Origin: a phage
Reading direction: 5' to 3' (one strand)
Sequence record: PZ583742.1
Length of the DNA: 64,000 bases
A model generated the notes under the pieces. That model did not search any database. It was not told the origin of the DNA and saw nothing but the letters and a program-made list of their open reading frames with translations. Each line of letters begins with the position of its first letter. Position 1 is the first letter of the stretch. The position numbers and the translations under genes are program-made. Positions 20,887 to 41,370 of the stretch are shown here, piece by piece.

Positions 20887-21405
20887 ATGGCTCATTTTAA
20901 TGAATGTTCTCAACTGATTGCTGGTGTTGATAAAGCTCAGGGCGCTTATGATAATGCAATTTTTGAAGGCACTGACCCACTGCAAGTTATGCTTGATATG
21001 CAGAAATCATTGCAGGTTCGTCTGGCTAAAGAAAAACCAGAATATAACGAACATCCTGATAACCTGGCGACTGCTGGTGAAGTTGTTACCTGGCTCCGCA
21101 ACCAGAAAGATTATATTGATGATGAATTCCGTGAACTGATTACTGCATTAGGTGGCATGTCCAATGGCGAGAAAGCTGCCTCGGCCGTATGGAAACCATG
21201 GAAAGCACAACATGGCGAAATGCAGCAAACCCTGATTAATGATTTATCTCCTGAAGACCAGCTCGAAATTAAATTTGAGATGATTGATATCCTGCACTTT
21301 GTCCTGAACATGTTCCACGGTCTTGGACTGACTGCAGAAGAAATCTTTAAATTGTATTATCTGAAAAATGCCGAAAACTTTGCTCGTCAAGACCGAGGTT
21401 ATTAA
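20887..21405 (+). CDS. 56: dCTP pyrophosphatase gp56 (all-alpha NTP-PPase)
   Basis: MAHFNEC...DPLQVMLDMQ...FKLYYLKNAENFARQDRGY close to T4 gp56; start at 20887 after AAGGA. Confidence 0.85.
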   Translation: MAHFNECSQLIAGVDKAQGAYDNAIFEGTDPLQVMLDMQKSLQVRLAKEKPEYNEHPDNLATAGEVVTWLRNQKDYIDDEFRELITALGGMSNGEKAASAVWKPWKAQHGEMQQTLINDLSPEDQLEIKFEMIDILHFVLNMFHGLGLTAEEIFKLYYLKNAENFARQDRGY

Positions 21406-21686
21406 TGGCTCGATTAAATAAACGTCAGCTTAAGAAAGCTCGCAAGAAATATATTAACGATATAATTGAAAATGTTAATACCGAAATCTTCGTAGAACTC
21501 TTATCTAATCAACTAAAACATTTATCTAAACATGAAATTGATACGAATACTGAAAATGCTAAAAATGTAATTGAAACTCATAATGCTTTTGCTAATGCAA
21601 CAGCAGAATGGATGGCGAATCCTACTGCTGAAAATCTAGCTAAAATGACTGAAGCCAATAAAGCAGTTCAAGCCATCAAATTGTAA
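21405..21686 (+). CDS. hypothetical protein (93 aa)
   Basis: ATGG overlap with gp56 stop; basic N-terminus. Confidence 0.4.
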   Translation: MARLNKRQLKKARKKYINDIIENVNTEIFVELLSNQLKHLSKHEIDTNTENAKNVIETHNAFANATAEWMANPTAENLAKMTEANKAVQAIKL

Positions 21687-21688
21687 GT

Positions 21689-21696
21689 TATAAATA
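21689..21696 (+). promoter_or_regulatory. late promoter TATAAATA for soc
   Basis: Exact TATAAATA 32 nt upstream of soc ATG. Confidence 0.55.
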
Positions 21697-21727
21697 CGCC
21701 TGTAATTAAACAACAAAGGAGTTAATT

Positions 21728-21961
21728 ATGGGTGGTTTCGTTAATATCAAAACCTTCACGCATCCAGCTGGTGAAGGTAAAGAAGTTAAAGGTGTTGAAG
21801 TATCTGTTCCGTTTGAAATCTATTCGAACGAGCACCGTATTGCTAATGCACACTATCAGACTTTTCCTTCCGAAAAGGCCGCTTATGTCACCGTAGCGTC
21901 TAGTGCAGCTGATTGGCGAACTAAGAACGCGGCGATGTTTACGCCTACCCCAGTAGTTTAA
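21728..21961 (+). CDS. soc: small outer capsid protein Soc
   Basis: 77 aa; VNIKTF...AHYQTFPSEKAAY matches T4 Soc; AGGAG SD. Confidence 0.85.
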   Translation: MGGFVNIKTFTHPAGEGKEVKGVEVSVPFEIYSNEHRIANAHYQTFPSEKAAYVTVASSAADWRTKNAAMFTPTPVV

Positions 21962-21966
21962 TTATA

Positions 21967-21989
21967 GGGAACCTTCGGGTTCCCTTTTT
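21967..21989 (+). terminator. intrinsic terminator (UUCG tetraloop)
   Basis: GGGAACC-TTCG-GGTTCCC then TTTTT. Confidence 0.6.
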
Positions 21990-22012
21990 GCTTTTAATAG
22001 AAGCGGTATAAT
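21989..22012 (+). promoter_or_regulatory. MotA-box middle promoter candidate
   Basis: TGCTTTT 21989-21995 and TATAAT 22007-22012. Confidence 0.4.
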
Positions 22013-22037
22013 TATTTCAATTACAGAGGAGAATACT

Positions 22038-22235
22038 ATGTTAAACCGTTGGATTAAACCGAACAAAGTTTTAGATGAAGTTATTGCTCATGATGTCCAT
22101 TTTAAGTATGGATTGGGTGTGTTTGATGAGGTTATCGTACATTCATTCATGATGCATGACGATGACTCTTTAGAATTCAATATTGAAATCCGTTGTGATG
22201 ATGGTAAAGTTGAATTTAAACGAGGTTTCCTATGA
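22038..22235 (+). CDS. hypothetical protein (65 aa)
   Basis: ATG with GAGGAG upstream. Confidence 0.4.
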   Translation: MLNRWIKPNKVLDEVIAHDVHFKYGLGVFDEVIVHSFMMHDDDSLEFNIEIRCDDGKVEFKRGFL

Positions 22236-22570
22236 TTAGTTGGCTCAAGAATTTATTCAAGACTAAACCGGGTGAAGGTGTGGTTCCTGTTAGCCTACCA
22301 GATGTTAAACTAAGAGAATATGTTTACATGGGTGATGGTATGATGGAAGAAGTTCGTCGACGACCAGAAAAAGCCGGTAATGTCGGACCAGGCGCATTAC
22401 CATTGAATTCGAAACAGTTAAAAGAGCATCTGGATTCAAGACGTTCTACAAGCCATGTCGATATGACTCCGATTGTAGTCGCTGCTGCCGTCAGTTCGTG
22501 GACTGGTGATTCGTCTTATTCCTCCTATGATTCAGGAAGCTGCGATTCGTCTTCCAGCTCGTGTGATTAA
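22232..22570 (+). CDS. hypothetical protein (112 aa) with Ser/Cys-rich tail
   Basis: N-terminus MISWLKNLF; C-terminal SSYSSYDSGSCDSSSSSCD. Confidence 0.4.
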   Translation: MISWLKNLFKTKPGEGVVPVSLPDVKLREYVYMGDGMMEEVRRRPEKAGNVGPGALPLNSKQLKEHLDSRRSTSHVDMTPIVVAAAVSSWTGDSSYSSYDSGSCDSSSSSCD

Positions 22571-22765
22571 ATGAGAATTACAAGTTGGCTTAAAGATTGG
22601 TTGGTTACCCCAGGGATTGATGATTCCTGGGTGGCCAGAGCCGAGGAAGAAATGCAGCGCGAAGCTGAAGAATGGGCTGCTACAGGGCTTAAAGCCATGC
22701 AGGAAAAGAAGACCGAACGAGCTGCGCTTAAACTGCTGCGTGATATCTACGGGGATAAATCATGA
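22571..22765 (+). CDS. hypothetical protein (64 aa)
   Basis: N-terminus [11 protein letters not shown] paralogous to preceding ORF. Confidence 0.4.
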
Positions 22766-22911
22766 CACAAGAAGAAGCCGAACGCCAGGCAAAAGAAGCA
22801 CTGGATTTGCTTTTGAAAATTGGCAGTAAAATGATGGAAGAAAATGAAAAGTACATCAAGGAAAATAAAGTTCCTGATGGTCCATTAGTTGGTAAGAGGA
22901 AATCATTATGA
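22762..22911 (+). CDS. hypothetical small protein (49 aa)
   Basis: ATGA overlaps on both sides; below ORF-track cutoff. Confidence 0.3.
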
Positions 22912-23390
22912 AAGTATACGAATTAGAATTCTATGTCCGTGATTCGGCTGGGCAAACACGACCTTACTATGCAACAGCCTGTCTTATCTTTGCATATAAT
23001 GGCATGGATTCGGTTACTGAGTTGGAAACAAAATTAATGAACCTGACGATGCCAGAAAACGTTATGCTGAAGGTATTTCATAGAAAAAACGTTAATGTGG
23101 CTGAAGGGTGTCCATTTACTGTTTCCGAAGCTCTGCATATCAAAGGCTATCGCCACCCGGACCTTTATGGCGAAGATACCATTTTCTATAAAGATAGAGA
23201 TAAAATGGCCACTGAACGTCTTCAAGGTCGCACATATCTGATTTCCACTACCGACGACCTTGCTGAAGTTGAACGTCAGATTTGGAAGCACTTTGATATC
23301 GGCTTGCGCTTTACTTTAACAGAAGAAGCTATTCAAGATACTAAAATGCGTGCTCGTATGTATGGTTACGGTCCTATCGGTGGCTACTAA
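22908..23390 (+). CDS. hypothetical protein (160 aa), Mrh-like by position and size only
   Basis: Lies between soc and the ADP-ribosyltransferase pair as T4 mrh does. Confidence 0.35.
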
Positions 23391-28583: not shown

Positions 28584-28838
28584 ATTACTTCTTTTGAAAT
28601 TGGCCAACAATATGAAATGTCCGCTCTTCAAGCTGCTGAAGCAGGTCTGACCGAAGCGTTTGAATGTGCATTTACAAATATTCGTGGTAAAATCTTTACT
28701 GTCAATAAAATTGCGGTATATGATAAAGAAACAGACATGAACAAAGGCATCTACTTGAACGTGTCAAACGCAAAAGGTCGTCGTGAAATTATGGTTGTAC
28801 AACCTAATCAACTGGCGATGTTCAATAAGGTTGCATAA
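28581..28838 (+). CDS. hypothetical protein (85 aa)
   Basis: Start after the leader (ORF-track start 28533 rejected). Confidence 0.4.
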   Translation: MITSFEIGQQYEMSALQAAEAGLTEAFECAFTNIRGKIFTVNKIAVYDKETDMNKGIYLNVSNAKGRREIMVVQPNQLAMFNKVA

Positions 28839-29590
28839 TGAAACCAGAATTTATTGACTTTGATGTTGTAAGTATGTATGTTCGCCCAATTAAACCATTA
28901 AAACTTGAGAAACAAAATATGACTATTGAAATTAACAAAACTTATCAACTGATTGAACCTATTATTCAAAACGCAGCTATGGTTTCTGGGTATAATACTC
29001 TGACTGATGCTTTAGGTGAAGGTGAATTTATTGTTGAAACTTTTGTAAAAAGTAACTGGTTTGATAAAGCATATATTCTACATGCACGTCGCCTTGATAC
29101 AAATAAAGTAGAAAAAATTATGGTTTATGAAGCTGAGATTGAACTCTTCAAAGAAGTTGAAGAAACTCCTATCAAAGTTGACAAAACCTATCAACTTGTT
29201 GGATATGGTGATTTTGATAATACTAATGCATTGAATGCCGGTTGGCGGGTGCTGAAAGGTATTTTTGGATTTGCTCCATTTACCGTTAAAACAGTTAAGT
29301 ACCACAATCACCAAAGCATCTTTGAATTTACTGCGGTCAATGAATCAGGTGACAATCTTGAAGCTATCCTTTATCCACGTGAATCTGTACTGCTGGAAGA
29401 AGTTAGCGAACTGGGTGACCCTATTGACTTGCTGTGTAAACCAGTTCAAATCAAACGCCCATTTAACAGTTCCATTTGTGGTTGGGTAACAGACCAGTGG
29501 ATTGAAGAGAGTGTTGAACTCCTGAACGTTGTCCATGCTGGTGAATTTACTGTTGTACCACGTTCCATGGTTGTTGAAATTTTTAATTAA
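28838..29590 (+). CDS. hypothetical protein (250 aa) with internal duplication and a C-terminal module shared with 29670-30230
   Basis: Repeated KTYQL segments; C-terminal WVTDQWIEESVELLNVVHAGEFTVVP. Confidence 0.45.
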   Translation: MKPEFIDFDVVSMYVRPIKPLKLEKQNMTIEINKTYQLIEPIIQNAAMVSGYNTLTDALGEGEFIVETFVKSNWFDKAYILHARRLDTNKVEKIMVYEAEIELFKEVEETPIKVDKTYQLVGYGDFDNTNALNAGWRVLKGIFGFAPFTVKTVKYHNHQSIFEFTAVNESGDNLEAILYPRESVLLEEVSELGDPIDLLCKPVQIKRPFNSSICGWVTDQWIEESVELLNVVHAGEFTVVPRSMVVEIFN

Positions 29591-29596
29591 ATTTAA

Positions 29597-29640
29597 AGTG
29601 TACAAACTCTTGGGGTCAGAGTATAATGACCCCACTGGAG
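29597..29640 (+). repeat. 44-bp promoter/stem-loop cassette, copy 1
   Basis: Matches 40846-40889 with one mismatch; includes TGTACA, GGGGTCA/TGACCCC hairpin and TATAAT. Confidence 0.85.
29599..29627 (+). promoter_or_regulatory. early promoter with stem-loop across the -10
   Basis: TGTACA 29599-29604, TATAAT 29622-29627, stem 29612-29618/29627-29633. Confidence 0.55.
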
Positions 29641-29669
29641 AATAAACTTATTAACCAAGAGAGAAAATT

Positions 29670-30230
29670 ATGAAAGTTGAAGCTGGCGAAATCGTTCGCG
29701 TATCCAAAAAATCTCGTTCAAGAGCCGCTGGACGTTTTGTTGAGGTTGTCAGTATTCGTGCTGATATTTTTGTTGACCATCCTGATAATGAAGTAAAGGT
29801 GCGTATCATTCCCAAAAATGGTCAGACTGAAACTCAATTCGCTTATGTTCGTGCTAAATTCCTGGAATCAACTGCTATTACTGCCGCCAACCTCCCTGTG
29901 GTTGAAGAAGTTGAATCCCATGATGGATATGTGTGCGAAAGCAATGATATCCGTGGCGTAATTGCTCAAGACGTTGAAACCATTGACCAGTCTCATGTTG
30001 GGGTTGATTTTAAATGGAAATTGGGCAAAGGTGTCTTTTTTGTTTCACCTAAACCGTTTGAATATGTTGACGAACCTTTTGGTACTTATGAAACCACTAG
30101 CATGTCTGGTTACATCACAGACCAGTGGGTTGAAGAAGGCGTTAAGCTCTATAACATCGTGTTCCTTGGAACCTTTAAGGTGGTTCCTGAAAGCTTTATC
30201 GTTGAGTATGCTGATATTCATCGTGCCTAA
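29670..30230 (+). CDS. hypothetical protein (186 aa) sharing a C-terminal module with 28838-29590
   Basis: C-terminal YITDQWVEEGVKLYNIVFLGTFKVVP. Confidence 0.45.
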   Translation: MKVEAGEIVRVSKKSRSRAAGRFVEVVSIRADIFVDHPDNEVKVRIIPKNGQTETQFAYVRAKFLESTAITAANLPVVEEVESHDGYVCESNDIRGVIAQDVETIDQSHVGVDFKWKLGKGVFFVSPKPFEYVDEPFGTYETTSMSGYITDQWVEEGVKLYNIVFLGTFKVVPESFIVEYADIHRA

Positions 30231-30278
30231 ATTATAAAAATGATAGGGTAAAATTACCCTATCAATGAGGAGAATATT

Positions 30279-30509
30279 ATGTTTAATGAAAATTGTGTGA
30301 CCACTTCCCTGACTGCTGAAGAGTTCTGGGACACTGCTGAAAGTGATAAAGTGATTGTGAAGAAAAACATCAATGAATTTCTTTGTACCACTGACATCAT
30401 TTATGTGTACGCAGATAAAGATGCAGAACTACCTAGCTATGCGCTGTTCCGCGAAGAATCAGAAGATGGCACAGATTTTTGGAAGGAGACTTATCATGTT
30501 GAAATTTGA
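30279..30509 (+). CDS. hypothetical acidic protein (76 aa)
   Basis: ATG with GAGGAG upstream. Confidence 0.35.
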   Translation: MFNENCVTTSLTAEEFWDTAESDKVIVKKNINEFLCTTDIIYVYADKDAELPSYALFREESEDGTDFWKETYHVEI

Positions 30510-30870
30510 AACTGATAAATGGTATTATTTTAAAGATAATGTTGCTGAAAGCAGATTTCGTTTGTTATGCTCTGATAATGATAATATAGCTGATGCTATA
30601 ATCAATGGTGAAGGATTTAGACCAGTCGGAATTGAAGGTGGTGATGTATATCGGATAGAATTTTCGACCGGTGGAATAGAGAGAATATTCATAAAGGAAG
30701 ATGAGCGTCGTTTCTTTGAAGAAGAAAAAGATGACGATACTGAAGATGAATGCGAAGACGCTGATGAAGCATTTGAACCAAGCGAATTCCCTTTGACTAA
30801 AATCACCATTTCTAATAACTCTGAAGCCTGGACCGTTTACCAGATGTTGAAAGCACACTTTAAGGAATAA
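30496..30870 (+). CDS. hypothetical protein (124 aa) with acidic tract
   Basis: AAGGAG SD then ATG 30496; EEEKDDDTEDECEDADE run. Confidence 0.4.
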   Translation: MLKFETDKWYYFKDNVAESRFRLLCSDNDNIADAIINGEGFRPVGIEGGDVYRIEFSTGGIERIFIKEDERRFFEEEKDDDTEDECEDADEAFEPSEFPLTKITISNNSEAWTVYQMLKAHFKE

Positions 30871-30871
30871 C

Positions 30872-31045
30872 ATGCCACTTTATGATTACAAATGTCAATC
30901 CAATGACTGCGCGAAAGAATACGAAAAAATCAAGAAAATCTCTGAAAGAGATAATGATGTTTGTCCTGATTGCCATCGGCTGGCTGTTCGGTTAGTCTCG
31001 GCTCCTAAACATGTTAATGGCGGTTTTTACGACCTTTTGAAGTGA
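30872..31045 (+). CDS. zinc-ribbon protein (FmdB-like), 57 aa
   Basis: MPLYDYKC...C...CPDC layout; AAGGA SD; below ORF-track cutoff. Confidence 0.45.
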   Translation: MPLYDYKCQSNDCAKEYEKIKKISERDNDVCPDCHRLAVRLVSAPKHVNGGFYDLLK

Positions 31046-31051
31046 GGATAT

Positions 31052-31312
31052 ATGAAATACATTAATCGTTCTATTGCAGCACTGGTACTGGCGGTTTCAT
31101 TGGCTAGTTGTACTGATGCAGATAATGCCATTCGTGTATTAGATGCAAACGGCTATGAACAAATCCAAATCACCGGTTATAACTGGTTGGGTTGCTCTGA
31201 AGATGATTTCCAACACACAGGCTTTACGGCCGTAGGGCCAACTGGTAAGAAAGTTAAAGGAACTGTTTGTTCTGGATTGCTGTTTAAGAATTCAACCATT
31301 CGATTTGAATAA
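31052..31312 (+). CDS. predicted lipoprotein (86 aa)
   Basis: Signal peptide with lipobox LASC; GAGGA SD. Confidence 0.5.
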   Translation: MKYINRSIAALVLAVSLASCTDADNAIRVLDANGYEQIQITGYNWLGCSEDDFQHTGFTAVGPTGKKVKGTVCSGLLFKNSTIRFE

Positions 31313-31329
31313 GGCCTTCGGGCCTTTTT
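31312..31329 (+). terminator. intrinsic terminator (UUCG tetraloop)
   Basis: AGGCC-TTCG-GGCCT then TTTT. Confidence 0.55.
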
Positions 31330-31353
31330 GCTTTAAAATATGTGACTTATAAT
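31329..31353 (+). promoter_or_regulatory. MotA-box middle promoter candidate
   Basis: TGCTTTA 31329-31335, TATAAT 31348-31353. Confidence 0.45.
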
Positions 31354-31359
31354 ACCTCC

Positions 31360-32067
31360 ATGAACTTAAAACAATTTATTGAAGAAAATCTTTTAACTAA
31401 GAACCCGAATCGTCTTAACGGTAATTTGTTCAAAAATGATTTAGAATTTGCCAAGAAATTCTGGGAAAAATATCCAGAAGAAGCAAATGTCTTTAGAACA
31501 GAAGCACTGCATTGTCAAGGAGGTAAAAGAGACCAACATCCGTACAATGAGGTCTGCTACCGTATTTTACATGATATAAAAGGAAAAGTCTTATGTAAGT
31601 GTGGTAAACCTGTTAACTATCATACATTTGCTACTGGCTACCATGAATTTTGTTCCGTTAAATGTCAGGGTGGTGGTATATTTGAAGAAGAGCGTATTTG
31701 TCCTGTTTGCGATACTAAGTATATGGCTACGAATAGGACTCAAAAATATTGTTCAGATTCCTGTGGTAAAGAAGCAAGAGATACTCAATCACTGGACTTG
31801 CCATATAGTCATTCCATAAAGATGAAAAAGCGCGACGTTTTGAAGTTAATTGAGGATACTCCGTATTGTGAAATTTGTAAAATAAAACTAACAAACAATT
31901 CGACTTCTTTATCAAAAAGCACTTGGTTCAATGTAGACCATTGCCACTCGACTGGTAAAGTCCGAGGTATTTTATGTTCAAAATGCAACATAGGCCTAGG
32001 AATGTTTAAAGACAATATTGCTTCATTAGAAACTGCGATAGAATACTTGAAACAAAGCAAGGAATAA
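31360..32067 (+). CDS. endonuclease VII-like His-Me finger nuclease with N-terminal zinc fingers (putative homing endonuclease)
   Basis: C-terminal DHCHSTGKVRGILCSKCNIGLG; several Cys pairs; first ATG (31360) near the predicted transcript start, so start uncertain. Confidence 0.55.
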   Translation: MNLKQFIEENLLTKNPNRLNGNLFKNDLEFAKKFWEKYPEEANVFRTEALHCQGGKRDQHPYNEVCYRILHDIKGKVLCKCGKPVNYHTFATGYHEFCSVKCQGGGIFEEERICPVCDTKYMATNRTQKYCSDSCGKEARDTQSLDLPYSHSIKMKKRDVLKLIEDTPYCEICKIKLTNNSTSLSKSTWFNVDHCHSTGKVRGILCSKCNIGLGMFKDNIASLETAIEYLKQSKE

Positions 32068-32073
32068 TTGATT

Positions 32074-33906
32074 ATGATTGAAAATAAAATTGAAATGCTT
32101 TCAGATAAAGACCATTGTTTGAAACGTCCGGGAATGTACATCGGAAGTGTTTCATATGAAGAATACGAAAGATTTTTATTTGGTGAGTATACTAAAGTAT
32201 CTTATGTGGCGGGTGTATTAAAACTAGTTGATGAGATTATCGACAACTCGGTTGATGAAGCTATACGTACAAATTTCAAATTTGCCAATAAAATTTCCGT
32301 TGATATCTCTTTGACTGATAACAAAGTTACTGTTGAAGATAATGGTCGTGGTATTCCGCAGGCTGTTGTCATAACTCCAGAAGGTGAAGAATTACCTGGC
32401 CCTGTAGCGGCCTGGACGAAAACCAAAGCGGGTGGGAATTTCGGTGATGATAAAGAACGTGTAACCGGCGGCCAGAATGGTGTTGGTTCAAGTCTTACCA
32501 ATATTTTTTCAATCCTTTTTACTGGGACCACATCTGACGGTAAAAATGAGCTTCGTGTAAGTTGTTCAAATAATGCCGATAATGTATCATGGAAAACCAA
32601 ACCAACCAAATCCAATGGTACCAAGGTTGAGTTTATTCCAGACTTTAGTCATTTTGAAATGAACAGTTTTGATAAAATTTATCTGGATATTACACTTGAC
32701 CGTCTGCAGACTCTTGCTGTTGTTTATCCTGATATTGAATTCAAATTCAATGGTAAAAAGGTACAAGGTCAGTTTAAAAAGTTTGCTAAACAATATGATG
32801 ATGAAATCATTATCCAGGAACAAGATAATTGCTCAATTGCAATCGGTCGGTCACCTGACGGATTCAGACATCTGACATATGTCAACAACATCCACACAAA
32901 AAATGGTGGACACCATATTGAATGCGTTATGGATGAAATGTGTGATGTGTTAATCCCGGCGATTAAACGCAAGTATAAAATTGAAGTAACCAAAGCACGC
33001 GTTAAAGAATGTATTACATTGTTGATGTTTATTCGCAATATGAAGAACATGCGATTTGATTCCCAGACCAAGGAGCGATTGACTTCCACTGCCGGTGAAA
33101 TTAAATCACATATCCAGGTCAATGGCAAAAAGTTAGCTGGTTCGTTGTTAAAATCAGAAGCTATTCTGACGCCTATCATTGAAGCTGCATTGGCTCGTAA
33201 ATTGGCTGCAGAGAAAGCAGCAGAGACTAAAGCAAATAAGAAAGCTTCAAAGGCCAAGGTACAAAAGCATATCAAAGCCAACGAATGGGGTAATGATAAG
33301 CTGGAAACGACTCTATTCCTGACCGAAGGAGATTCTGCAACGGGTCCGTTTATCAAGGTTCGTGACCGTGAATTGCAAGGTGCTTATCCGTTACGTGGTA
33401 AGTTTAAAAACACATGGGGTCTGAAAGCTGTTGAAGTTATGAAGAACGCTGAAGCCTTTGATGTGTGTGCGATTACTGGTTTAACGATTGGACAACCGGC
33501 CGAGAATATGAATTACCGAAACATTGCTATCATGACAGATGCGGATGTGGATGGTGTTGGTAGTATCTATCCATCGTTATTGGCGTTTTTCAGTAACTGG
33601 CCAGAGCTGTTCCATGAAGGACGAATTCGCTTTGTGAAAACTCCTGTTATTATTGCACAGCTCAAAGATAAACAAGAATGGTTCTATTCTCTTCCTGATT
33701 ACGAAGAAGCTAAGGATAAACTTCCGAAGCATACCATTCGATATATCAAGGGGCTTGGTTCTCTGGAAGATTCAGAGTACAAACGCGTATTGCTCGAGCC
33801 AGTATTCGAAGTTGTTCAATTGCCCGACAATTGGAAAGAACTGTTCGAAATGCTATTCGGTAAAGATTCCCAGCAGCGTAAAGACTGGATGAATGCGACG
33901 CTATAA
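32074..33906 (+). CDS. 39: DNA topoisomerase II large subunit (gp39 with the gene-60 part contiguous)
   Basis: GyrB-like ATPase N-terminus, TOPRIM LTEGDSATGP; single 610-aa frame. Confidence 0.9.
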   Translation: MIENKIEMLSDKDHCLKRPGMYIGSVSYEEYERFLFGEYTKVSYVAGVLKLVDEIIDNSVDEAIRTNFKFANKISVDISLTDNKVTVEDNGRGIPQAVVITPEGEELPGPVAAWTKTKAGGNFGDDKERVTGGQNGVGSSLTNIFSILFTGTTSDGKNELRVSCSNNADNVSWKTKPTKSNGTKVEFIPDFSHFEMNSFDKIYLDITLDRLQTLAVVYPDIEFKFNGKKVQGQFKKFAKQYDDEIIIQEQDNCSIAIGRSPDGFRHLTYVNNIHTKNGGHHIECVMDEMCDVLIPAIKRKYKIEVTKARVKECITLLMFIRNMKNMRFDSQTKERLTSTAGEIKSHIQVNGKKLAGSLLKSEAILTPIIEAALARKLAAEKAAETKANKKASKAKVQKHIKANEWGNDKLETTLFLTEGDSATGPFIKVRDRELQGAYPLRGKFKNTWGLKAVEVMKNAEAFDVCAITGLTIGQPAENMNYRNIAIMTDADVDGVGSIYPSLLAFFSNWPELFHEGRIRFVKTPVIIAQLKDKQEWFYSLPDYEEAKDKLPKHTIRYIKGLGSLEDSEYKRVLLEPVFEVVQLPDNWKELFEMLFGKDSQQRKDWMNATL

Positions 33907-33909
33907 ATA
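33902..33909 (+). promoter_or_regulatory. late promoter motif TATAAATA
   Basis: Exact TATAAATA overlapping the gene 39 stop. Confidence 0.35.
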
Positions 33910-33912
33910 GAT

Positions 33913-33932
33913 ACGGGAGAATATTCTCCCGT
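33913..33932 (+). other. 20-bp perfect palindrome
   Basis: ACGGGAGAAT|ATTCTCCCGT, no T run. Confidence 0.6.
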
Positions 33933-33948
33933 CTTATAGGAGAAGTCC

Positions 33949-34101
33949 ATGAAAAAGTGGTGGGTTACGTTGTCAAATGGCGAATACGGTTATCTGTGGG
34001 CCGAGACTAAACCTCTGTTTGCATCCTTTGTCACCATTATGTGCGAGACCTGGGATGGTGAATACTATACCGCATATGGGCAAGTCTATAAAGTTGAGTA
34101 G
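33949..34101 (+). CDS. hypothetical small protein (50 aa)
   Basis: AGGAG SD then ATG; Trp/Tyr-rich. Confidence 0.35.
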   Translation: MKKWWVTLSNGEYGYLWAETKPLFASFVTIMCETWDGEYYTAYGQVYKVE

Positions 34102-34106
34102 CCAAA

Positions 34107-34128
34107 AGGACCTTCGGGTCCTTTTTTA
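34107..34128 (+). terminator. intrinsic terminator (UUCG tetraloop)
   Basis: AGGACC-TTCG-GGTCCT then TTTTTT. Confidence 0.6.
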
Positions 34129-34131
34129 TTA

Positions 34132-34160
34132 TGTACAAGCCACAAAAAGTGTGTTAATAT
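34132..34160 (+). promoter_or_regulatory. early sigma70 promoter
   Basis: TGTACA, 17-nt spacer, TAATAT with TG upstream. Confidence 0.5.
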
Positions 34161-34177
34161 GTCTTTGAGGTGAAAAT

Positions 34178-34462
34178 ATGATTATGTCTGACGGAAGTTT
34201 AGTTAATCTGCAAAATGTCGCACGGTGTATTATGGAAGCAGGCCTGAGGAAGGTGCAGGGGCTCCCAGATAACGACAGGAAGCGAAGTTACTTGTTAGCG
34301 GTAAGAACAACAGCCATGAGCATTAAGGCTGGCCAGAAGGTCCCTGAGGAGCGAATTGAAGCACTCCTTGCATTGATATACCATGGCCAAGAACATAAAG
34401 CTACCATGCGTAGTATGAGAAAAATATTGCAGGAGATTGGAAATGACGAACTTCAAAGTTAA
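34178..34462 (+). CDS. hypothetical protein (94 aa)
   Basis: GAGGTG SD then ATG. Confidence 0.4.
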   Translation: MIMSDGSLVNLQNVARCIMEAGLRKVQGLPDNDRKRSYLLAVRTTAMSIKAGQKVPEERIEALLALIYHGQEHKATMRSMRKILQEIGNDELQS

Positions 34463-34646
34463 TATGGAACTGTTTGATAAGGCTATCCATAAAGAATACC
34501 GTGTTATCCAACGATTTTTTGATATAAGAGAAGCTGAAGAGTTTAAAGAACGCTTCAAAGAAATCCGTATTAAAATAGCTTCAGACACCGCAACAAAGGA
34601 TGAACTTCTTGAAGTTGCAGAATTAATCAAACGTAACATAAAGTGA
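34443..34646 (+). CDS. hypothetical protein (67 aa)
   Basis: AGGAG SD then ATG 34443 (ORF-track TTG start 34437 less likely). Confidence 0.4.
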   Translation: MTNFKVNMELFDKAIHKEYRVIQRFFDIREAEEFKERFKEIRIKIASDTATKDELLEVAELIKRNIK

Positions 34647-34653
34647 GAAAAAC

Positions 34654-36888
34654 ATGATTTTAGAAACTGAAAAAGAAACAATCCTTGGTAATGGTGCCAA
34701 AGCATCAGCATTCACAATCCAGGCATCTCCAAAGGTGTTTAAGATTCTGACCAGCGACCTTTATACAAACAAGGTGCGCGCGGTTGTTCGTGAGCTGATT
34801 ACCAATATGATTGATGCTCATATGCTCAATGGCTGTCAGGATAAATTCATTGTTCAAGCTCCTGGCGAACTGGACCCACGTTTTGTATGTCGTGACTTTG
34901 GTCCAGGTATGAGTGATTTCCAGATTCGTGGTGATGAAAATACCCCAGGTCTGTATAACAGTTTCTTTGCATCATCCAAGGCTGAATCCAACGATTTTAT
35001 TGGTGGCTTTGGTCTGGGTTCTAAATCTCCGTTCAGTTATACAGAGACGTTTAGCCTGATTTCATATCATGATGGTCAAGTTAATGGTTATGTCGCTTAT
35101 ATGGACGGCGATGGTCCACAGATTAAGCCAACCTTTAGCGAACCAATGAAACCTGGCGACCGCACAGGGATTGAAGTTGTTGTCCCGGTTGATAGTAATG
35201 ATTTTGGTAAGTTCCGCCACGAGATTGCATATATCATGCGCCCATTTGCTGGACTGGCTGAAGTACAAGGCGTAGGCGAAATTAATTATTTCCCGGAATT
35301 TGATGATTATTATGCTCCAGAGCGTATTGATTATAGCAGCCCAGAACGTTATGGACTTTATGCAATTTATGGCGGAATTGTTTATCCGATTGATGGCGGG
35401 TATACAAAGAAAACCTGGATGACTGCCAAAAATGATGTTGTCTTTATTAAGTTCCCGATGGGTTCGCTGGATATCGCACCTTCTCGTGAAGCATTATCGC
35501 TGGACAAACGTACGGTCGCAAATATCGTTGAACGTATTGAAACCCTTGATAAGAAAGTCATGGAAGACGATTGTAAGAAATGGCAGGAATCAGAATGTCT
35601 CCGCCATACATATCGCGAATTGCAGAATCTGAATTATGAAGCTCGTAATTTTCTGAAAGCTCGTAATGCTGAAACGAAATTTACGAAATCACAATTGACC
35701 TTTAACCAGATGTACGAAATGTTCGAGCTGGACAAAGACCTTATTAATGCCGGGGTTGTTTATGATATCTATCGTGACACTCGTCTGAAACGTCTGCGCA
35801 ACTCAAGCTCAAACTCGAACACAGCAAGTCTGACGAGCATGTTTGGTATTCAGAATGATACCTTGAACATTGTTATTGATGATGTTAAAGGGCGAATTGC
35901 GATGATTCGCGGTATCAGTTCAATGTTGTATGATACCAGTGCAAAAGCCAAAAAGCTTATTGCATCTGGTAAAGTCCCGACTCGTCAGGGTAGTAGTTTA
36001 CTGTTTGTTGACCCGACCAGCGAAATTCAAACACGGTTGATGGTTCAACTCCAGGAACGATTTAAAGGCGATACAGTTAATATCTATCGTACGTCTGAAC
36101 TGACTGCCCTTGTAAAAGACTGGATTCCGGTTGCGGACCCGAAAGAGCGTGTTAAGTCAAAGACTCCATCGGTGATTCGTTGGACTAAAACTAATGGCAA
36201 ATGGCAGTCTGTTGAAGAATTTACATGTGCAGCTGATGCAGAGGAAATCGATGGTTATGCTGTATTCATTAACCGCAGTAGCATTTCCCCGTTGAATCAG
36301 GAATATGGCACCACGACCTTCGGGACCCAGACATTGTGTAAACTGGCAAACCTGTTGGAAATCAATGAATTCTGTGTTATTCGTCCACAGCTTCAGAAAA
36401 AGGTTACCAAGCTGGCGCAGTGTGATTGTCTGATTGAAGCTGCGGTCAATCGTTATGTAGAATTGATTGATGCGGTTGATGTGGACCAGTACATTGCCGC
36501 TTCAAGCCGTTCGCGTTATTATATTCCTATCCTGTCTGAATATGCAGAACTGAATTTTATGTTCAAGTATTTTTATGCAAAAGATGTTCAGAAAGATGTG
36601 AATACTGACTATGCCGAACTAATGCAGTTCAATAAGTTCTTTGCTTATAACGCATATAACAGTGGAACGGTTGATAAAACCATGCAGGAAACACTGGTCC
36701 TTTGTAATAAGATTTATTACGACCTGACCAAAAACGCTTCAGTAACAAGCGATAAAATGGTTTTTGAATTTGAAAAGAATCACCCGATTGTTTCACACTT
36801 TTTATATAACCGTAACGCTATGTCAACTGAACAAGTACAGAACGTTGCTCAAATCATGAAGGCCGTGGAAGCGGCCAATAAGGAATAA
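34654..36888 (+). CDS. rIIA: rIIA protein (GHKL-type ATPase fold)
   Basis: N-terminus MILETEKETILGNG and N-box VRELITNMIDA match T4 rIIA; 744 aa. Confidence 0.9.
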   Translation: MILETEKETILGNGAKASAFTIQASPKVFKILTSDLYTNKVRAVVRELITNMIDAHMLNGCQDKFIVQAPGELDPRFVCRDFGPGMSDFQIRGDENTPGLYNSFFASSKAESNDFIGGFGLGSKSPFSYTETFSLISYHDGQVNGYVAYMDGDGPQIKPTFSEPMKPGDRTGIEVVVPVDSNDFGKFRHEIAYIMRPFAGLAEVQGVGEINYFPEFDDYYAPERIDYSSPERYGLYAIYGGIVYPIDGGYTKKTWMTAKNDVVFIKFPMGSLDIAPSREALSLDKRTVANIVERIETLDKKVMEDDCKKWQESECLRHTYRELQNLNYEARNFLKARNAETKFTKSQLTFNQMYEMFELDKDLINAGVVYDIYRDTRLKRLRNSSSNSNTASLTSMFGIQNDTLNIVIDDVKGRIAMIRGISSMLYDTSAKAKKLIASGKVPTRQGSSLLFVDPTSEIQTRLMVQLQERFKGDTVNIYRTSELTALVKDWIPVADPKERVKSKTPSVIRWTKTNGKWQSVEEFTCAADAEEIDGYAVFINRSSISPLNQEYGTTTFGTQTLCKLANLLEINEFCVIRPQLQKKVTKLAQCDCLIEAAVNRYVELIDAVDVDQYIAASSRSRYYIPILSEYAELNFMFKYFYAKDVQKDVNTDYAELMQFNKFFAYNAYNSGTVDKTMQETLVLCNKIYYDLTKNASVTSDKMVFEFEKNHPIVSHFLYNRNAMSTEQVQNVAQIMKAVEAANKE

Positions 36889-36889
36889 T

Positions 36890-37861
36890 ATGTTTAATAT
36901 CAAATGTATGTCTAAAGCCGAACAAGCTGATGTGGTCCAGATGTATTCAACAGGCAATTATACCCAGCCTGAATTGGCAGAATATTTTGCCGTGTCCGTC
37001 GACACCATTCGCCGCGTTTTGAAAAATGATAAAGAATCAAAATTAGCTAAAACCATTTCTGCATCACTGAAAGCAGCTGTTGGCGTGGCGATTAATGCTC
37101 CGGTGACAGTAACGGTTGAAGTCCCGGTTACTGATACAATCGGTGGAAGCCGCCCGGAAATCGTATGGAACGCATCGAGTAAATTCGTTTCCATCACTGA
37201 AGGCCGTACAGTCTGGAACGCAACAAAAGACCATAAACACTTTGATGATATTATTCAGGCATTGATTGAATTCCGTTATGAAGATGCTATCGAGTTTATC
37301 TCAATCAAAGCTGCAGTACAAAAATATGTGAAAGGTGATGTGCGTATTGAAGGTGGTAGTTTGTTCTATCAGGGAATTGAACTGCGCTCTGGCCTGGTTA
37401 CTCGTATCATTGATTCAATGCAAAATGGTGAAGACTTTGAATTCTATCTGCCGTTCCTTGAGAATCTCCTTGAGAATCCGAGTGAGAAAGCTGTACAGCG
37501 TTTGTTTGACTTCCTGGTTGCAAACGATATCGAAATCACCGAAGACGGTCATTTCATCGCATGGAAAATGGTTCGTGCAACTTACAAAGATTGTCACTCA
37601 AACACATTCGACAACAGCCCTGGTCAATATGTTAAAATGCCGCGCTCTCGTGTGAATGACAATGACGAACAGACCTGTTCAACCGGGTTGCATGTTTGCT
37701 CTAAAGGCTATATCGGAAGTGGTTTTGGTCATGGTGATGGACGCATCGTATCCTGTAAAGTTCACCCGCGTGATGTTGTAAGTATCCCGGTGGATTATGG
37801 GGATAGTAAGATGAGGGTCTGTGGTTACCTGGTCCTTGATGATGTAACTGAACAATTTTAA
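36890..37861 (+). CDS. rIIB: rIIB protein
   Basis: MFNIKCMSKAEQ...VSVDTIRRVLKN and C-terminal HVCSK...VHPRDVVSIP match T4 rIIB. Confidence 0.9.
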   Translation: MFNIKCMSKAEQADVVQMYSTGNYTQPELAEYFAVSVDTIRRVLKNDKESKLAKTISASLKAAVGVAINAPVTVTVEVPVTDTIGGSRPEIVWNASSKFVSITEGRTVWNATKDHKHFDDIIQALIEFRYEDAIEFISIKAAVQKYVKGDVRIEGGSLFYQGIELRSGLVTRIIDSMQNGEDFEFYLPFLENLLENPSEKAVQRLFDFLVANDIEITEDGHFIAWKMVRATYKDCHSNTFDNSPGQYVKMPRSRVNDNDEQTCSTGLHVCSKGYIGSGFGHGDGRIVSCKVHPRDVVSIPVDYGDSKMRVCGYLVLDDVTEQF

Positions 37862-37868
37862 ATTAATC

Positions 37869-37882
37869 GGGGCTTCGGCCCC
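37869..37882 (+). other. UUCG-tetraloop hairpin (no T run) before next SD
   Basis: GGGGC-TTCG-GCCCC, same element as 6091-6104. Confidence 0.5.
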
Positions 37883-37894
37883 TAATGAGGCTTT

Positions 37895-38092
37895 ATGTTA
37901 GGTTTCCAAGCACGTGTAGTTGAAGAATACGACCAGCTGGTTTTGAAAATCAATGCTCTTGAAGAATTTATTAAGGGCGGTGTTTTTGAAACTCTTGACA
38001 TCCGTCAACAAGGTCTTTTGATTGCACAACTCGACGCGATGGGCGCTTATGCTCATATACTGGCAGTTCGTATCTCTTATTTTGGTGAATAA
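37895..38092 (+). CDS. hypothetical protein (65 aa)
   Basis: GAGG SD then ATG. Confidence 0.4.
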   Translation: MLGFQARVVEEYDQLVLKINALEEFIKGGVFETLDIRQQGLLIAQLDAMGAYAHILAVRISYFGE

Positions 38093-38095
38093 ATT

Positions 38096-38416
38096 ATGAT
38101 TAACTATATGAACGTTGGTGATGAATCTATTAACGAAATTCGGTTGCATGGTAATCATGTTGCGGATATTGTTTATTGTGTTGATTGCCATTATGCTTCT
38201 ACAAAGTCAACTGGCCGGTTATATGCGAGAGACATCATTCTTGCAACGAAAGAAGAACTTCGTAGTCTGGACCATTCCACTCTAGCCGAAAGTGCCAGAA
38301 TTTATTATGGCGTCGTTCATGTAGACAAAGTTTATATTGGCAGTGATTATCAAGAGCAAGCTGAGCAAAATTCTTTGGATATTGTCGAAAAATCCGATAT
38401 GTATTTTAAAGGATGA
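38096..38416 (+). CDS. hypothetical protein (106 aa)
   Basis: ATG 3 nt after preceding stop. Confidence 0.4.
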   Translation: MINYMNVGDESINEIRLHGNHVADIVYCVDCHYASTKSTGRLYARDIILATKEELRSLDHSTLAESARIYYGVVHVDKVYIGSDYQEQAEQNSLDIVEKSDMYFKG

Positions 38417-38420
38417 GCTG

Positions 38421-39014
38421 ATGATTCAGAAGAGTAAAACATGGGAGCATCTGAAAAAGATGCCCTCCTTTCTTTATACAAAGGAAGACTTAACCCCTGA
38501 ATCCCTGCAAAAGATTGTAGACACGGCTAGGTATTCATTGCGTAAAGACCCAGGTCAGGACCGTGAGCAAGTCATGCAAAGATGTATGGTGGCCACAATG
38601 GCTGAACAAGCTATTGCTAAATGGACCTCCGGTTTTTTATGTGGCGGTGATGAAGATTACGATAATCCTTATTCCTTTGCATTTGATGTAGTTTCGAAGG
38701 AAGGGGTAAGAATCGAAGTCAAGACTCATCAGTCTGGTTCCAAATGGATATCCGTGCATACTGGTCACCAGGGTGATTATCCGCATGGTTACGGGGTCAA
38801 TCTTGGTCCTTTTATGCAACACAAGCTTGCTGACCTTATGATTATGTTTAATGTAAAAGAGACTCTCAAAGGTTATAGATTTAAACCAAAATTCCTTGCT
38901 GGACCTGGTGCTTTCGTTCCTGAGTCTGGTCTTGTGCAGAAGTCACAAGGGGATGGTTGGTACCTCCGTTCTTGTTCAGAAGAAAAATTTCCCTATCACC
39001 GGTTTACAAGCTGA
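38421..39014 (+). CDS. hypothetical protein (197 aa), possible PD-(D/E)xK nuclease
   Basis: FAFDVV...RIEVKT resembles a D...E-x-K core; lies where T4 denB sits, but I cannot confirm similarity. Confidence 0.35.
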   Translation: MIQKSKTWEHLKKMPSFLYTKEDLTPESLQKIVDTARYSLRKDPGQDREQVMQRCMVATMAEQAIAKWTSGFLCGGDEDYDNPYSFAFDVVSKEGVRIEVKTHQSGSKWISVHTGHQGDYPHGYGVNLGPFMQHKLADLMIMFNVKETLKGYRFKPKFLAGPGAFVPESGLVQKSQGDGWYLRSCSEEKFPYHRFTS

Positions 39015-39026
39015 ACCAACTGTGTA

Positions 39027-39060
39027 ATAATGTCCTCATACCAACAAATGAGGACATTAT
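39027..39060 (+). promoter_or_regulatory. SD-sequestering hairpin (translational control element)
   Basis: 13-bp perfect stem ATAATGTCCTCAT/ATGAGGACATTAT; 3' arm contains GAGGA SD and ends 2 nt before ATG 39062. Confidence 0.5.
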
Positions 39061-39061
39061 C

Positions 39062-39337
39062 ATGGAACACGTTACTACTCACAACATCAAACAAATCCTT
39101 ATCCAAGCACTCAAAAACAACAACATCAATTTTCCAACCCATGAAATTTTTGATGTGGCATTCAACGAAGTCCAGGGTCAAGTTGCATATTATGACGTTA
39201 TCATTTATCTTTCAGAATTTGAAGTATACCACCTGACTGAAATTGCTTTCTATCTATATCGTGGGACTGCAGATTTTACTGGGGTCGTGAATGCAGTTGG
39301 CGCATATAAAGAAGTTAAAGAACAAATGCACAATTAA
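39062..39337 (+). CDS. hypothetical protein (91 aa)
   Basis: ATG directly after the hairpin. Confidence 0.4.
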   Translation: MEHVTTHNIKQILIQALKNNNINFPTHEIFDVAFNEVQGQVAYYDVIIYLSEFEVYHLTEIAFYLYRGTADFTGVVNAVGAYKEVKEQMHN

Positions 39338-39348
39338 TTAAAAAGTAG

Positions 39349-39378: not shown

Positions 39379-39416
39379 GATTCCATACTGAGTTACCAAA
39401 CAGACTGGAGAATAAA

Positions 39417-39572: not shown

Positions 39573-39582
39573 GGAAAACAAA

Positions 39583-40502: not shown

Positions 40503-40847
40503 ATGTCTAAAGTATTTTTTGGTAATCGCAACATTATGTTCTTTAAACAGATTAGCGTATCAGAAGCATTTGATTTAAGTTATTCAGGTGGTACAAAGGC
40601 TGTTAACCTTAAAAATTTGATGTCTGCAGAATTTGCATTCTATCAGGACCCTGAAACTGGTTTCTACAAATTTATTAAGTTCCGCATGACTATGGACCGC
40701 GATTATCGCGATGTTTATTATACAAGTTATGAAAGTGTTATCAATGCAATTCGTGAAGCTTATGGATTGGATTCGTTATCTCTTGACCGCCTGTATAATG
40801 CAAGCCTTTACACCAGCGGATTTATTTTAGAACAACTTCAAAAATAG
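40503..40847 (+). CDS. hypothetical protein (114 aa)
   Basis: AAGGA SD then ATG 40503. Confidence 0.4.
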   Translation: MSKVFFGNRNIMFFKQISVSEAFDLSYSGGTKAVNLKNLMSAEFAFYQDPETGFYKFIKFRMTMDRDYRDVYYTSYESVINAIREAYGLDSLSLDRLYNASLYTSGFILEQLQK

Positions 40848-40889
40848 TGTACAAACTCATGGGGTCAGAGTATAATGACCCCACTGGAG
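40846..40889 (+). repeat. 44-bp promoter/stem-loop cassette, copy 2
   Basis: See 29597-29640. Confidence 0.85.
40848..40876 (+). promoter_or_regulatory. early promoter with stem-loop across the -10
   Basis: TGTACA, TATAAT 40871-40876, GGGGTCA/TGACCCC stem. Confidence 0.55.
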
Positions 40890-40920
40890 CACAAAACTTT
40901 AACTTACTGAGGAAATTAAT

Positions 40921-41370
40921 ATGACTACTTACATGACCCGTCGTGACGTACTGAATGCTGGCGCTACCACTGTTGCTTACATCCATAATGGCAATTATGT
41001 TGCAGGGCGTCCAACTAAAGAAGCTATCACTCAACCAGGTTTTTATTTCGTGGTTAAAGGTGAAGGTGAATCACGTATTGTTGCCGCACGTTTTTATGTT
41101 GGTAACCAACGTTCACAACAAGGGTTTGACACTGTATTAAGTCACATCCGCAAACAGCGTTCTCAACTGTCTCGCACAATGGCGAACAATGGGGTTATCT
41201 ATGAAGTCCTGTTTGTCCCAGTTTCTAAAATGAAACCTCTGACAACTGGTTACGGTAAAGGTCAAATTGCGATGGCGTTCACTCGCTCACATAATTCTGA
41301 TTGTCAGACCCTTTCAGAAATGAATCGCATGCTTGCTGATAACTTTAAATTCATTCTGCAGAGCTATTAA
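40921..41370 (+). CDS. hypothetical protein (149 aa); Ndd-like by position and size only
   Basis: GAGGAAA SD then ATG; no motif I can verify. Confidence 0.35.

Follow-up and report, generated by a model that had tools for sequence, protein, structure and literature searches.

Near-identical promoter and stem-loop cassettes of the PeSL type upstream of motB and ndd in a T4-like Gaprivervirus phage

The DNA analyzed here, referred to as the window, is a stretch of 64,000 nucleotides (sequence record PZ583742.1) from a T4-like myovirus of the genus Gaprivervirus, in which the early genes lie on the plus strand; its closest record is the phage vB_EcoM_RZ (RZ), with 96.8% identity over 4 kb. Two intergenic sites in the window, copy 1 (29597-29640) and copy 2 (40846-40889), carry almost the same 44-mer, AGTGTACAAACTC(T/A)TGGGGTCAGAGTATAATGACCCCACTGGAG, in direct orientation and 11,249 bp apart. 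The copies are identical at 43 of 44 bases, the sole difference being a T at 29610 and an A at 40859, and a search of the window allowing up to three mismatches identified just these two sites, with none in 100 dinucleotide-preserving shuffles. Each copy is located between a stop codon and the ribosome-binding site of the ortholog of a T4 early gene, motB for copy 1 and ndd for copy 2 (Table 1). The TAA stop codon of the motB.1-like gene (29588-29590) is located 8 nt 5′ of the −35 hexamer of copy 1, and the TAG stop codon of the open reading frame (ORF) at the ndd.1 position (40845-40847) overlaps the start of copy 2. The interval of 11.2 kb between the copies contains motB, cef, a goF-like gene, a gene for a putative endonuclease, gene 39, rIIA, rIIB and denB, together with the small ORFs of the denB-ndd region.

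Table 1. Positions of the cassette elements and neighboring genes in the window
Feature	Coordinates	Strand	Evidence
motB.1-like paralog of motB, 250 aa, upstream of copy 1	28838..29590	+	ORF list, PHROG 2333, MotB-like C-terminal match, RZ annotation
AT-rich (UP-like) tract 5′ of −35, copy 1	29576..29598	+	sequence
−35 hexamer TGTACA, copy 1	29599..29604	+	promoter scan
Stem 5′ arm TGGGGTCA, in spacer, −24 to −17, copy 1	29611..29618	+	folding, covariation in 21 relatives
−10 hexamer TATAAT, copy 1	29622..29627	+	sequence, folding, promoter scan
Stem 3′ arm TGACCCCA, over discriminator, copy 1	29627..29634	+	folding
Leader motif GGAGAATAAAC, motB copy	29637..29647	+	RegB/S1 consensus, 10/11 positions
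motB, 186 aa, gene served by copy 1	29670..30230	+	PHROG 1671, E = 3.5e-69
ORF at ndd.1 position, 114 aa, upstream of copy 2	40503..40847	+	PHROG 10053
A-rich tract 5′ of −35, copy 2	40825..40847	+	sequence
−35 hexamer TGTACA, copy 2	40848..40853	+	promoter scan
Stem 5′ arm, copy 2	40860..40867	+	sequence, folding, covariation
−10 hexamer TATAAT, copy 2	40871..40876	+	promoter scan
Stem 3′ arm, copy 2	40876..40883	+	folding
Leader motif GGAGCACAAAA, ndd copy	40886..40896	+	RegB/S1 consensus, 10/11 positions
ndd, 149 aa, gene served by copy 2	40921..41370	+	PHROG 1102, E = 1.1e-59; RZ annotation

A promoter scan of both copies identified hexamers that agree with the consensus at 10 of 12 positions and are separated by a 17-bp spacer, a geometry of the sigma-70 type; the TGn of an extended −10 element is absent from both copies, in which positions −15 to −13 read GAG. 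The −35 hexamer is preceded by an AT-rich tract, GAAATTTTTAATTAAATTTAAAG in copy 1 and TTTTAGAACAACTTCAAAAATAG in copy 2, and a tract of this kind belongs to the definitions of both the promoter-early stem-loop (PeSL) elements and the T4 early promoters (PMC2839356; PMC1524935). The characteristics of T4-type early promoters (Pe) are also present, in that GTGTAC fits the GTTTAC-like −35 sequence at five of six positions, the −10 sequence is TATAAT with A at −11 and T at −7, the region around −40 is A-rich, and the units precede the orthologs of motB and ndd. The orthologous site at T4 motB has the same frame, TAGTTTACAAACTCTTGGGACCAGAGTATAATGGTCCC, and shares 29 of 32 bases; no promoter features are annotated in the T4 GenBank record, and the motB promoter was not mapped in the published MotB paper. 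From these features, we infer that each unit is a strong early promoter of the sigma-70 type. The predicted transcription start sites, placed by the usual 6-nt gap 3′ of the −10 hexamer, are A29634 and A40883, and in both copies the 3′ arm of the stem ends at the predicted start.

For comparison, 14 early promoters of the window were placed in one register. The motB and ndd copies share 43 of 44 positions, compared with 23.4 ± 4.2 (maximum 36) for the other 90 promoter pairs; after removal of both hexamers, the values are 31 of 32 for this pair and 13.4 ± 3.8 for the other pairs. The identity of the pair is so far above that of the other pairs that a common promoter function is insufficient as an explanation. 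Directly 3′ of the GGAG sequence, the two leaders diverge (AATAAACTT versus CACAAAACTT).

The stem within each copy comprises 8 bp, TGGGGTCA/TGACCCCA, and its loop, GAGTATAA, holds the sequence TATAA, with the final T of the −10 hexamer opening the 3′ arm. The predicted RNA folding energies of 61-nt segments are −19.3 kcal/mol for copy 1 and −17.3 kcal/mol for copy 2 (z-scores of −3.5 and −3.1 against shuffled sequences), and the fold adds a lower helix in which CUCU in the spacer (29607-29610) pairs with GGAG in the leader (29637-29640). A preliminary description of this DNA had reported a 44-bp unit duplicated approximately 11 kb apart with one base different, each copy carrying a TGTACA −35 element and a hairpin whose loop contains the TATAAT −10 element; the coordinates and the 43/44 match were verified, and the elements were found as described, with the loop holding five bases of the −10 hexamer and the 3′ arm its sixth, a T. 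The proposed combination of promoter and hairpin is also borne out by the placement of the units 5′ of motB and ndd, by their sigma-70-type geometry, and by compensatory changes in the stems of relatives.

These changes were identified in a family alignment of 21 distinct sequences, which consisted of the matches from an IMG/VR scan for TACAAACTCNT-N6-AGAGTATAAT, a pattern in which CTC is fixed, together with the window and GenBank loci. In the 8-pair helix, 98.8% of the cells are paired; pairing was 87% when the letters of the 3′ arm were shuffled, with none of 500 shuffles as high as the observed value, and 34-54% when the partners were slid by one to three columns. Three of the stem pairs show compensatory changes, one of them occurring as CG, GC, UA, AU, GU and UG. 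The wobble cells comprise 16 of the G.U or U.G type, representing at least seven independent events by our own tally of variants, and none of the A.C type, indicating that the plus strand is the strand that must pair. This asymmetry points to the sense RNA or the non-template DNA strand as the folding molecule, and argues against a cruciform and against a protein site with two-fold symmetry. As a background control, a broad IMG/VR scan was performed with the pattern TACA-N13-AGAGTATAAT, and the matches listed were mostly chance occurrences in unrelated contigs, in which the complementarity of the arms centered on 2-3 of six positions. No Rfam family was matched at E ≤ 1 by either cassette in a search of 29000-41500.

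Hairpins with different sequences occupy the same place in other phages and at other promoters. The stem of the T4 motB promoter is GGGACC/GGTCCC, and the ndd promoter of Mosigvirus has the same frame with the stem GAGAGC/GCTCTC. The T4 ndd site has an unrelated hairpin, GGCCG...CGGCC, and a GGAG leader without a recognizable −35 or −10 element; the hairpin is thus kept without a promoter, and it seems to matter independently of the promoter. Within the window, 7 of 23 candidate early promoters (16878, 29599, 39349, 40848, 60236, 60523 and 61219) carry a hairpin around the −10 element with z ≤ −4, and their stems are unrelated in sequence and located at the same place. A hairpin surrounding the −10 element is a general architecture in this phage.

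The distribution of stem types among Gaprivervirus genomes bears on the similarity of the two copies. At the ndd copy, the stem is GGGGTC/GACCCC in all 12 of the genomes. At the motB copy, this ndd-type stem is found in six genomes (the window, RZ, IMG contig ...408, TH55, phage 212 and P479), the stem GGGGCC/GGTCCC in VR26, IMG contig ...401 and PSD2001, GGGGCC/GGCCCC in DK-13, and the T4-like GGGACC/GGTCCC in CJ20. The distances of the upstream flanks form two clusters and both stem types occur in each, suggesting that the ndd-type stem reached the motB site repeatedly or was spread by recombination. In CJ20, a private A-to-T substitution, giving TACATACTC in place of TACAAACTC, is present in both copies, and TACATACTC is found in no other genome examined; in addition, the T/A polymorphism of the window is on the opposite copy in P479. 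These observations indicate short-tract gene conversion, a non-reciprocal exchange, between the motB and ndd copies. Ordinary compensatory point mutation also occurs, as seen in DK-13, and the change of the motB stem requires just two pair changes, so that some of the identity could be convergent.

Several breakpoints of homology were identified at the cassettes. In Mosigvirus and in two other distant groups, all homology to the window is lost 5′ of 40841/40842, at the first bases of copy 2. At copy 1, the window and RZ show 0-3 differences per 60 nt from TH55, DK-13, P479 and PSD2001 across the cassette and leader; against these four genomes, motB of the window diverges by 20-38% from position 29671, with 6-23 differences per 60 nt from the start codon to 29910. 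This region is followed by a window-specific segment of approximately 60 nt (29911-29970), and beyond 29970 only 0-2 differences per 60 nt remain against TH55 and DK-13, the recovery being less clean against P479 and PSD2001 (16-17 differences at 30031-30090). The 5′ 300 nt of motB represents a divergent allele that the window shares with RZ alone. A replacement that begins within the ribosome-binding site affects the 5′ half of the gene following a sister cassette in JS98-type genomes, and in another genome this gene is deleted exactly from ATG to ATG. VR26 and DK-13 possess an extra cassette 412 bp 5′ of the ndd copy, forming a cassette-ORF-cassette unit, whereas the window lacks a cassette at the corresponding site and has another ORF upstream, with 97% identity resuming at the ribosome-binding site. 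The genes that follow the cassette frame in the different genomes belong to at least seven protein families, namely MotB, Ndd and five of unknown function.

The preliminary description had proposed that identical units flanking different cargo genes would allow homologous recombination to swap modules, and this proposal holds in part. Segments that are divergent or replaced do start at the 3′ edge of the cassette or its leader, as seen in VR26 and DK-13, at the JS98-type loci and in the motB allele, and these breakpoints, the exchange between copies and the variety of downstream families all speak in its favor. A swap of modules between the motB and ndd copies themselves is not supported: the 11.2 kb between them consists of conserved early genes and is not a small cargo module flanked by cassettes, and a chimeric query composed of the motB.1 end, the cassette and the ndd leader identified no motB.1-cassette-ndd deletion junction in 50,697 phage records. 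Indels bounded by promoters had been expected to be typical in the comparison with RZ, and this expectation was rejected, as only one of four touches a promoter (16620-16873, at promoter 16878); of the other three, one is located at a terminator hairpin and two are at microhomologies of start and stop codons. With three of the four indels bounded otherwise, the cassettes are one of several junction types, and several kinds of conserved regulatory sequence, not this cassette alone, mark junctions. In addition, breakpoints may fall at conserved regulatory elements for no other reason than that conservation stops there. The idea of recombination at such units is not new, since it is the published PeSL model (PMC2839356; PMC4122927).

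PeSL elements were described as sigma-70-like early promoters with an AT-rich upstream tract, positioned between a stop codon and a Shine-Dalgarno sequence (Arbiol 2010, PMC2839356). The PeSLs of RB49 and phi1 showed promoter activity and terminator-like activity in lacZ fusions, mini-circles were found between neighboring copies, and PeSL-like sequences in JS98 were noted in the same study (PMC2839356); the class was later extended to T4/PST and KVP40/nt-1, with the ndd region as an example (Comeau 2014, PMC4122927). The motB and ndd units are PeSL elements and hence of a published kind, real but ordinary. They share with this class the AT-rich tract, the sigma-70-like boxes, and a stem-loop of a G-run and a C-run that overlaps the −10 element, its stability and pairing being evident from folding and covariation. 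They are likewise intergenic, between stop codon and Shine-Dalgarno sequence, occur in several copies per genome (up to four of this subfamily), and are associated with replaced, inserted or deleted ORFs, including those of the hyperplastic denB-ndd region, which is also an example in PMC4122927. They differ in their genus, Gaprivervirus, in their −35 sequence, which is TGTACA instead of TTGACA (RB49) or TTTACW (T4/PST), and in that the motB and ndd copies serve conserved genes 11 kb apart and do not flank a single ORFan. Whereas the stem-loops of the PST/T4 PeSLs were described just 5′ of the promoter, the stems of the window and of T4 motB embrace the −10 element, as in RB49. A term search of the two PeSL papers (PMC2839356; PMC4122927) found no mention of compensatory stem evolution, of a sense-strand wobble pattern or of exchange between copies.

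The units also resemble the T4 early promoters (Hinton 2010, PMC2988021; Nolan 2006, PMC1524935) in their strong match to host sigma-70, A-rich or UP-like tract, GTTTAC-like −35 sequence and early-gene position, the T4 motB site being an ortholog; moreover, positions −3 to −1 are C-rich, as noted for RB69, RB49 and 44RR. In contrast to those promoters, the cassettes have no TGn extended −10 element, their −35 region reads GTGTAC, and the reviews of T4 early promoters (PMC2988021; PMC1524935) do not treat a hairpin as part of the promoter. A further likeness is to the morons of lambdoid phages, which consist of a promoter, an ORF and a terminator, in that self-contained transcription signals travel with accessory ORFs; morons, however, are whole insertions of foreign GC content acquired by illegitimate recombination, whereas here the regulatory cassette alone is repeated and the exchange appears to be based on homology (contrast in PMC1524935). 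The current picture of the evolution of T4-type genomes is unchanged by these results. The PeSL architecture extends to coliphages of the genera Gaprivervirus, Dhakavirus, Mosigvirus and Tequatrovirus, which are common in phage-therapy collections; in comparisons or engineering of T4-like genomes, the cassettes flag probable mosaic junctions, and as short direct repeats they could give rise to rare deletions.

Taken together, we consider it likely that each unit is a composite early cassette of the PeSL type, in which a promoter is combined with a stem formed in the sense strand, the copies are matched by conversion, and the sequence serves as a homology patch for recombination; the specific role of the hairpin in RNA is much less certain than this composite explanation. 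In the proposed scheme, host RNA polymerase would start the motB or ndd transcript immediately after infection, at approximately A29634 or A40883. With a start predicted at the 3′ foot of the stem, the transcript of the cassette itself would be devoid of the hairpin, and folding would be confined to sense RNA entering by read-through from the upstream gene. There, the hairpin would most likely mark or insulate the point at which the upstream unit ends, through attenuation, pausing or protection of the 3′ end. The stem arms occupy the spacer and the discriminator, the least constrained parts of the promoter, presumably because these positions tolerate any sequence, leaving the AT-rich −10 element as the loop; a compact genome may thus superimpose the signal that ends one unit on the signal that starts the following one. 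The motB and ndd copies would be paralogs that are kept identical by gene conversion, and across the family as a whole the homology provided by the conserved cassette and leader would be the patch at which recombination joins unrelated or divergent downstream sequences.

Other explanations account for parts of these observations. The two units might be independent strong promoters that became alike through selection for polymerase binding, with no transfer of DNA, and it is true that the TGTACA/TATAAT frame and some leader motifs are common to the early promoters of the window and that conservation of the frame TACAAACTCTTG...AGAGTATAAT extends across genera. This reading is nevertheless highly improbable in view of the 43 shared positions, against the 23.4 ± 4.2 of 44 in other promoter pairs, of stem positions that are free to vary between genomes and yet are identical within the window genome, of the private CJ20 substitution shared by both copies, and of a motB stem state that is at odds with the phylogeny of the flanks. 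Similarly, GGGGTCA-N8-TGACCCC might be a palindromic operator, to which a dimeric phage or host protein would bind across the −10 element and shut off early transcription; the potential to pair would then be a by-product of its two-fold symmetry. The repeat straddles the −10 element, a classic position for a repressor, symmetric changes in the half-sites would imitate covariation, and the authors of the PeSL studies speculated on GGGG...CCCC as a protein target; however, the 16 cells of the G.U type break the symmetry of the DNA while keeping the pairing of the RNA, with none of the A.C type, the coexistence of several stems in single genomes (for example, GGGGTC with GGGAGC, or GGGAGC with GGGACC) is unlike the specificity of one protein, and unrelated stems are located at the same place in other promoters of the window. 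We therefore regard an operator as having only a slim chance of being correct.

A cruciform or hairpin in the DNA could alternatively be cut by a structure-specific nuclease or recombinase, such as endonuclease VII, making the cassette an active hot spot of recombination instead of a passive patch with homology. Breakpoints do cluster at the cassette, one crossover in RB49 was mapped inside the loop, and the authors of the PeSL studies left open "homologous or site-specific recombination", but most breakpoints are located at the leader or the ribosome-binding site and not in the loop. In addition, a stem of 8 bp with a loop of 8 nt makes a poor cruciform, the G.U versus A.C asymmetry implies that only one strand needs to pair, and a homology of less than 50 bp suffices for T4-type recombination (Singer 1982, cited in PMC2839356), so that no special enzyme is required; an active hot spot is thus very unlikely. 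Finally, the hairpin could be a classical Rho-independent terminator of the upstream gene that overlaps the next promoter by chance, a view with which the GC-rich stem 21 nt 3′ of the upstream stop codon is compatible, as is the finding that one RB49 PeSL stem-loop cut lacZ expression as much as rrnB T1. The sequence directly 3′ of the stem is nevertheless ACTGGAG, with no T-run, and a terminator scan passed over the cassette hairpins while calling 31311-31326, 34104-34125 and 43243-43260, which have a UUCG loop and a T-run; the lack of both a T-run and a terminator call makes a classical termination role unlikely, and the explanation as a whole is extremely improbable. A MITE or IS-like element was also considered and rejected: the unit has neither terminal repeats, its sole inverted repeat being the internal 8-bp stem, nor a target-site duplication, the flanks are orthologous, and the site holds a promoter in every genus examined.

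Another early phage promoter with an integral hairpin is known from phage N4, whose early promoters contain an extruded DNA hairpin with a 3-nt loop that is recognized by the virion RNA polymerase. The cassettes share with these promoters a short GC stem as an integral part, but differ in that the host sigma-70 enzyme is the predicted polymerase, the −10 element is contained in the loop, and the asymmetry between the strands is a sign of RNA folding and not of promoter recognition.

In T4 early mRNAs, strong sites for the RegB/S1 endoribonuclease follow the consensus GG*AG-RAYARAA (Uzan and Miller 2010, PMC3014915), and the leaders of both cassettes contain a sequence that matches it at 10 of 11 positions. 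Judged by this consensus, both cassettes appear to have the same type of site, although the cassette motif is distinct from the Shine-Dalgarno sequence of the gene, being located 4 nt past the predicted start and approximately 30 nt before the ATG. A speculative and rather unlikely possibility is that the cassette sorts transcripts by origin, the sensitivity to RegB being set by where a transcript started. In read-through RNA, the stem would form and the CUCU:GGAG lower helix would hide the predicted RegB/S1 motif; in promoter-initiated RNA, the 5′ arm would be missing and GGAG-RAYARAA would be unpaired 4 nt from the 5′ end. Cleavage by RegB followed by the action of T4 polynucleotide kinase could then convert a triphosphate end into a decay-prone monophosphate end. 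If this were true, the same 44 bp would determine where one class of transcripts begins and also its programmed early decay, while sparing the other class, and gene conversion would keep the two copies matched. A relaxed RegB-like motif occurs 10 times in the window, compared with 1.6 expected, and on the plus strand only, and the leaders of relatives read GGAG or GGAT followed by an ATAAAA-like sequence.

The gene 5′ of the motB cassette (28838–29590) is a tandem paralog of motB (29670–30230); the two share a C-terminal domain, both are matched by PHROG 1671, and a 60-nt repeat (29473–29532 in the paralog, 30101–30160 in motB) retains 72% DNA identity. The cassette (29597–29640) therefore lies between two related genes. 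The 5′-half of motB (29671–29970) is a divergent allele found in the window and in its closest relative, vB_EcoM_RZ (RZ), which differs by 20–38% from other Gaprivervirus genomes, and the segments flanking it differ from those genomes by 0–5%. Within this allele lies a window-specific insertion of approximately 60 nt (29911–29970), and the predicted MotB is 186 aa in length, compared with 160–167 aa in other Gaprivervirus genomes.

Comparison with RZ identified a total of four ORF-sized indels, which are listed below together with the other features located in this analysis. The putative endonuclease ORF, labeled in RZ as endonuclease VII or “putative endonuclease,” appears to act as an optional insertion, possibly of the homing type, because homology to the window ends at approximately 31362 in most relatives. 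The rIIA gene forms one intact ORF of 744 aa in the window (34654–36888); the RefSeq annotation of RZ splits it into two CDS (21065–23294).

Positions of indels, hairpins, promoters and motifs (window coordinates unless a locus is named)
Feature	Position	Strand	Context
Indel vs RZ	16620–16873		Window-only ORF; end falls in promoter at 16878
Indel vs RZ	21405–21684		Window-only ORF; TAA/GTTAT junction
Indel vs RZ	31314		RZ-only ORF; immediately 5′ of terminator hairpin 31311–31326
Indel vs RZ	44530		RZ-only ORF; ATGA start/stop overlap
Putative endonuclease ORF	31342–32067		Between goF-side ORFs and gene 39
T4 ndd-site hairpin	L007:3540–3600	–	T4-type phage RB55, 5′ of ndd
RegB-consensus-like motif GGAKNAYARAA	16100, 39407, 43350, 61279 (examples)	+	
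Early promoter with –10 hairpin	39349–39400		5′ of ORF at 39417; 13-bp stem around –10
Terminator-then-promoter composites	43243–43310, 34104–34160, 59770–59830		

In phage CJ20 (L159), TACATACTC replaces TACAAACTC in both the motB and the ndd cassettes (1690–1760 and 12690–12760), a substitution absent from every other genome examined. The stems of these two copies are unlike each other, being GGGACC in one and GGGGTC in the other; hence, any conversion tract in CJ20 is short. A strong hairpin (GGCCG...CGGCC; the segment folds at –23 kcal/mol) is retained at the T4 ndd site, as represented by RB55, with TTGGAG and the same ribosome-binding site 3′ of it. Since neither a –35 nor a –10 element is present at this site, it resembles the “half PeSL” form of the promoter-early stem-loop (Comeau 2014, PMC4122927). 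Complementary arms also flank the –10 element in promoters of the form TTTACAAT...AAGTCT-AGAGTATAAT-AGATTT in IMG/VR metagenomic viral contigs (L057, L100, L117, L127, L135, and L148), suggesting that coliphages may not be the only group with this layout.

The RegB-consensus-like motif is confined to the + strand, with 10 occurrences in the whole window against 1.6 expected, and in most of them it functions as a ribosome-binding site (GGAGAATAAAATG). [quoted passage not shown]

In the terminator-then-promoter composites, a UUCG-tetraloop hairpin and T-run are followed directly by AAAGTAGTGTACAA, and the promoters carry no hairpin around the –10 element; this arrangement represents an alternative PeSL layout, with the stem-loop located 5′ of the promoter. 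The window also contains a second paralogous pair of early-promoter cassettes (15653–15717 and 43275–43339; 83% identity over 65 nt, 36/44 in the promoter register, the 44-nt alignment of the early promoters), which lack a –10 hairpin and share a long leader, GATTCCAYACTGAGTTACACAAT, the start of which recurs near 25175, 39368, and 61237. The strongest –10 hairpin in the window (–19.2 kcal/mol, z = –6.5 relative to shuffled sequences) is that of the promoter 5′ of the ORF at 39417, in which the conserved leader GATTCCATACTG forms the 3′ arm of the stem.
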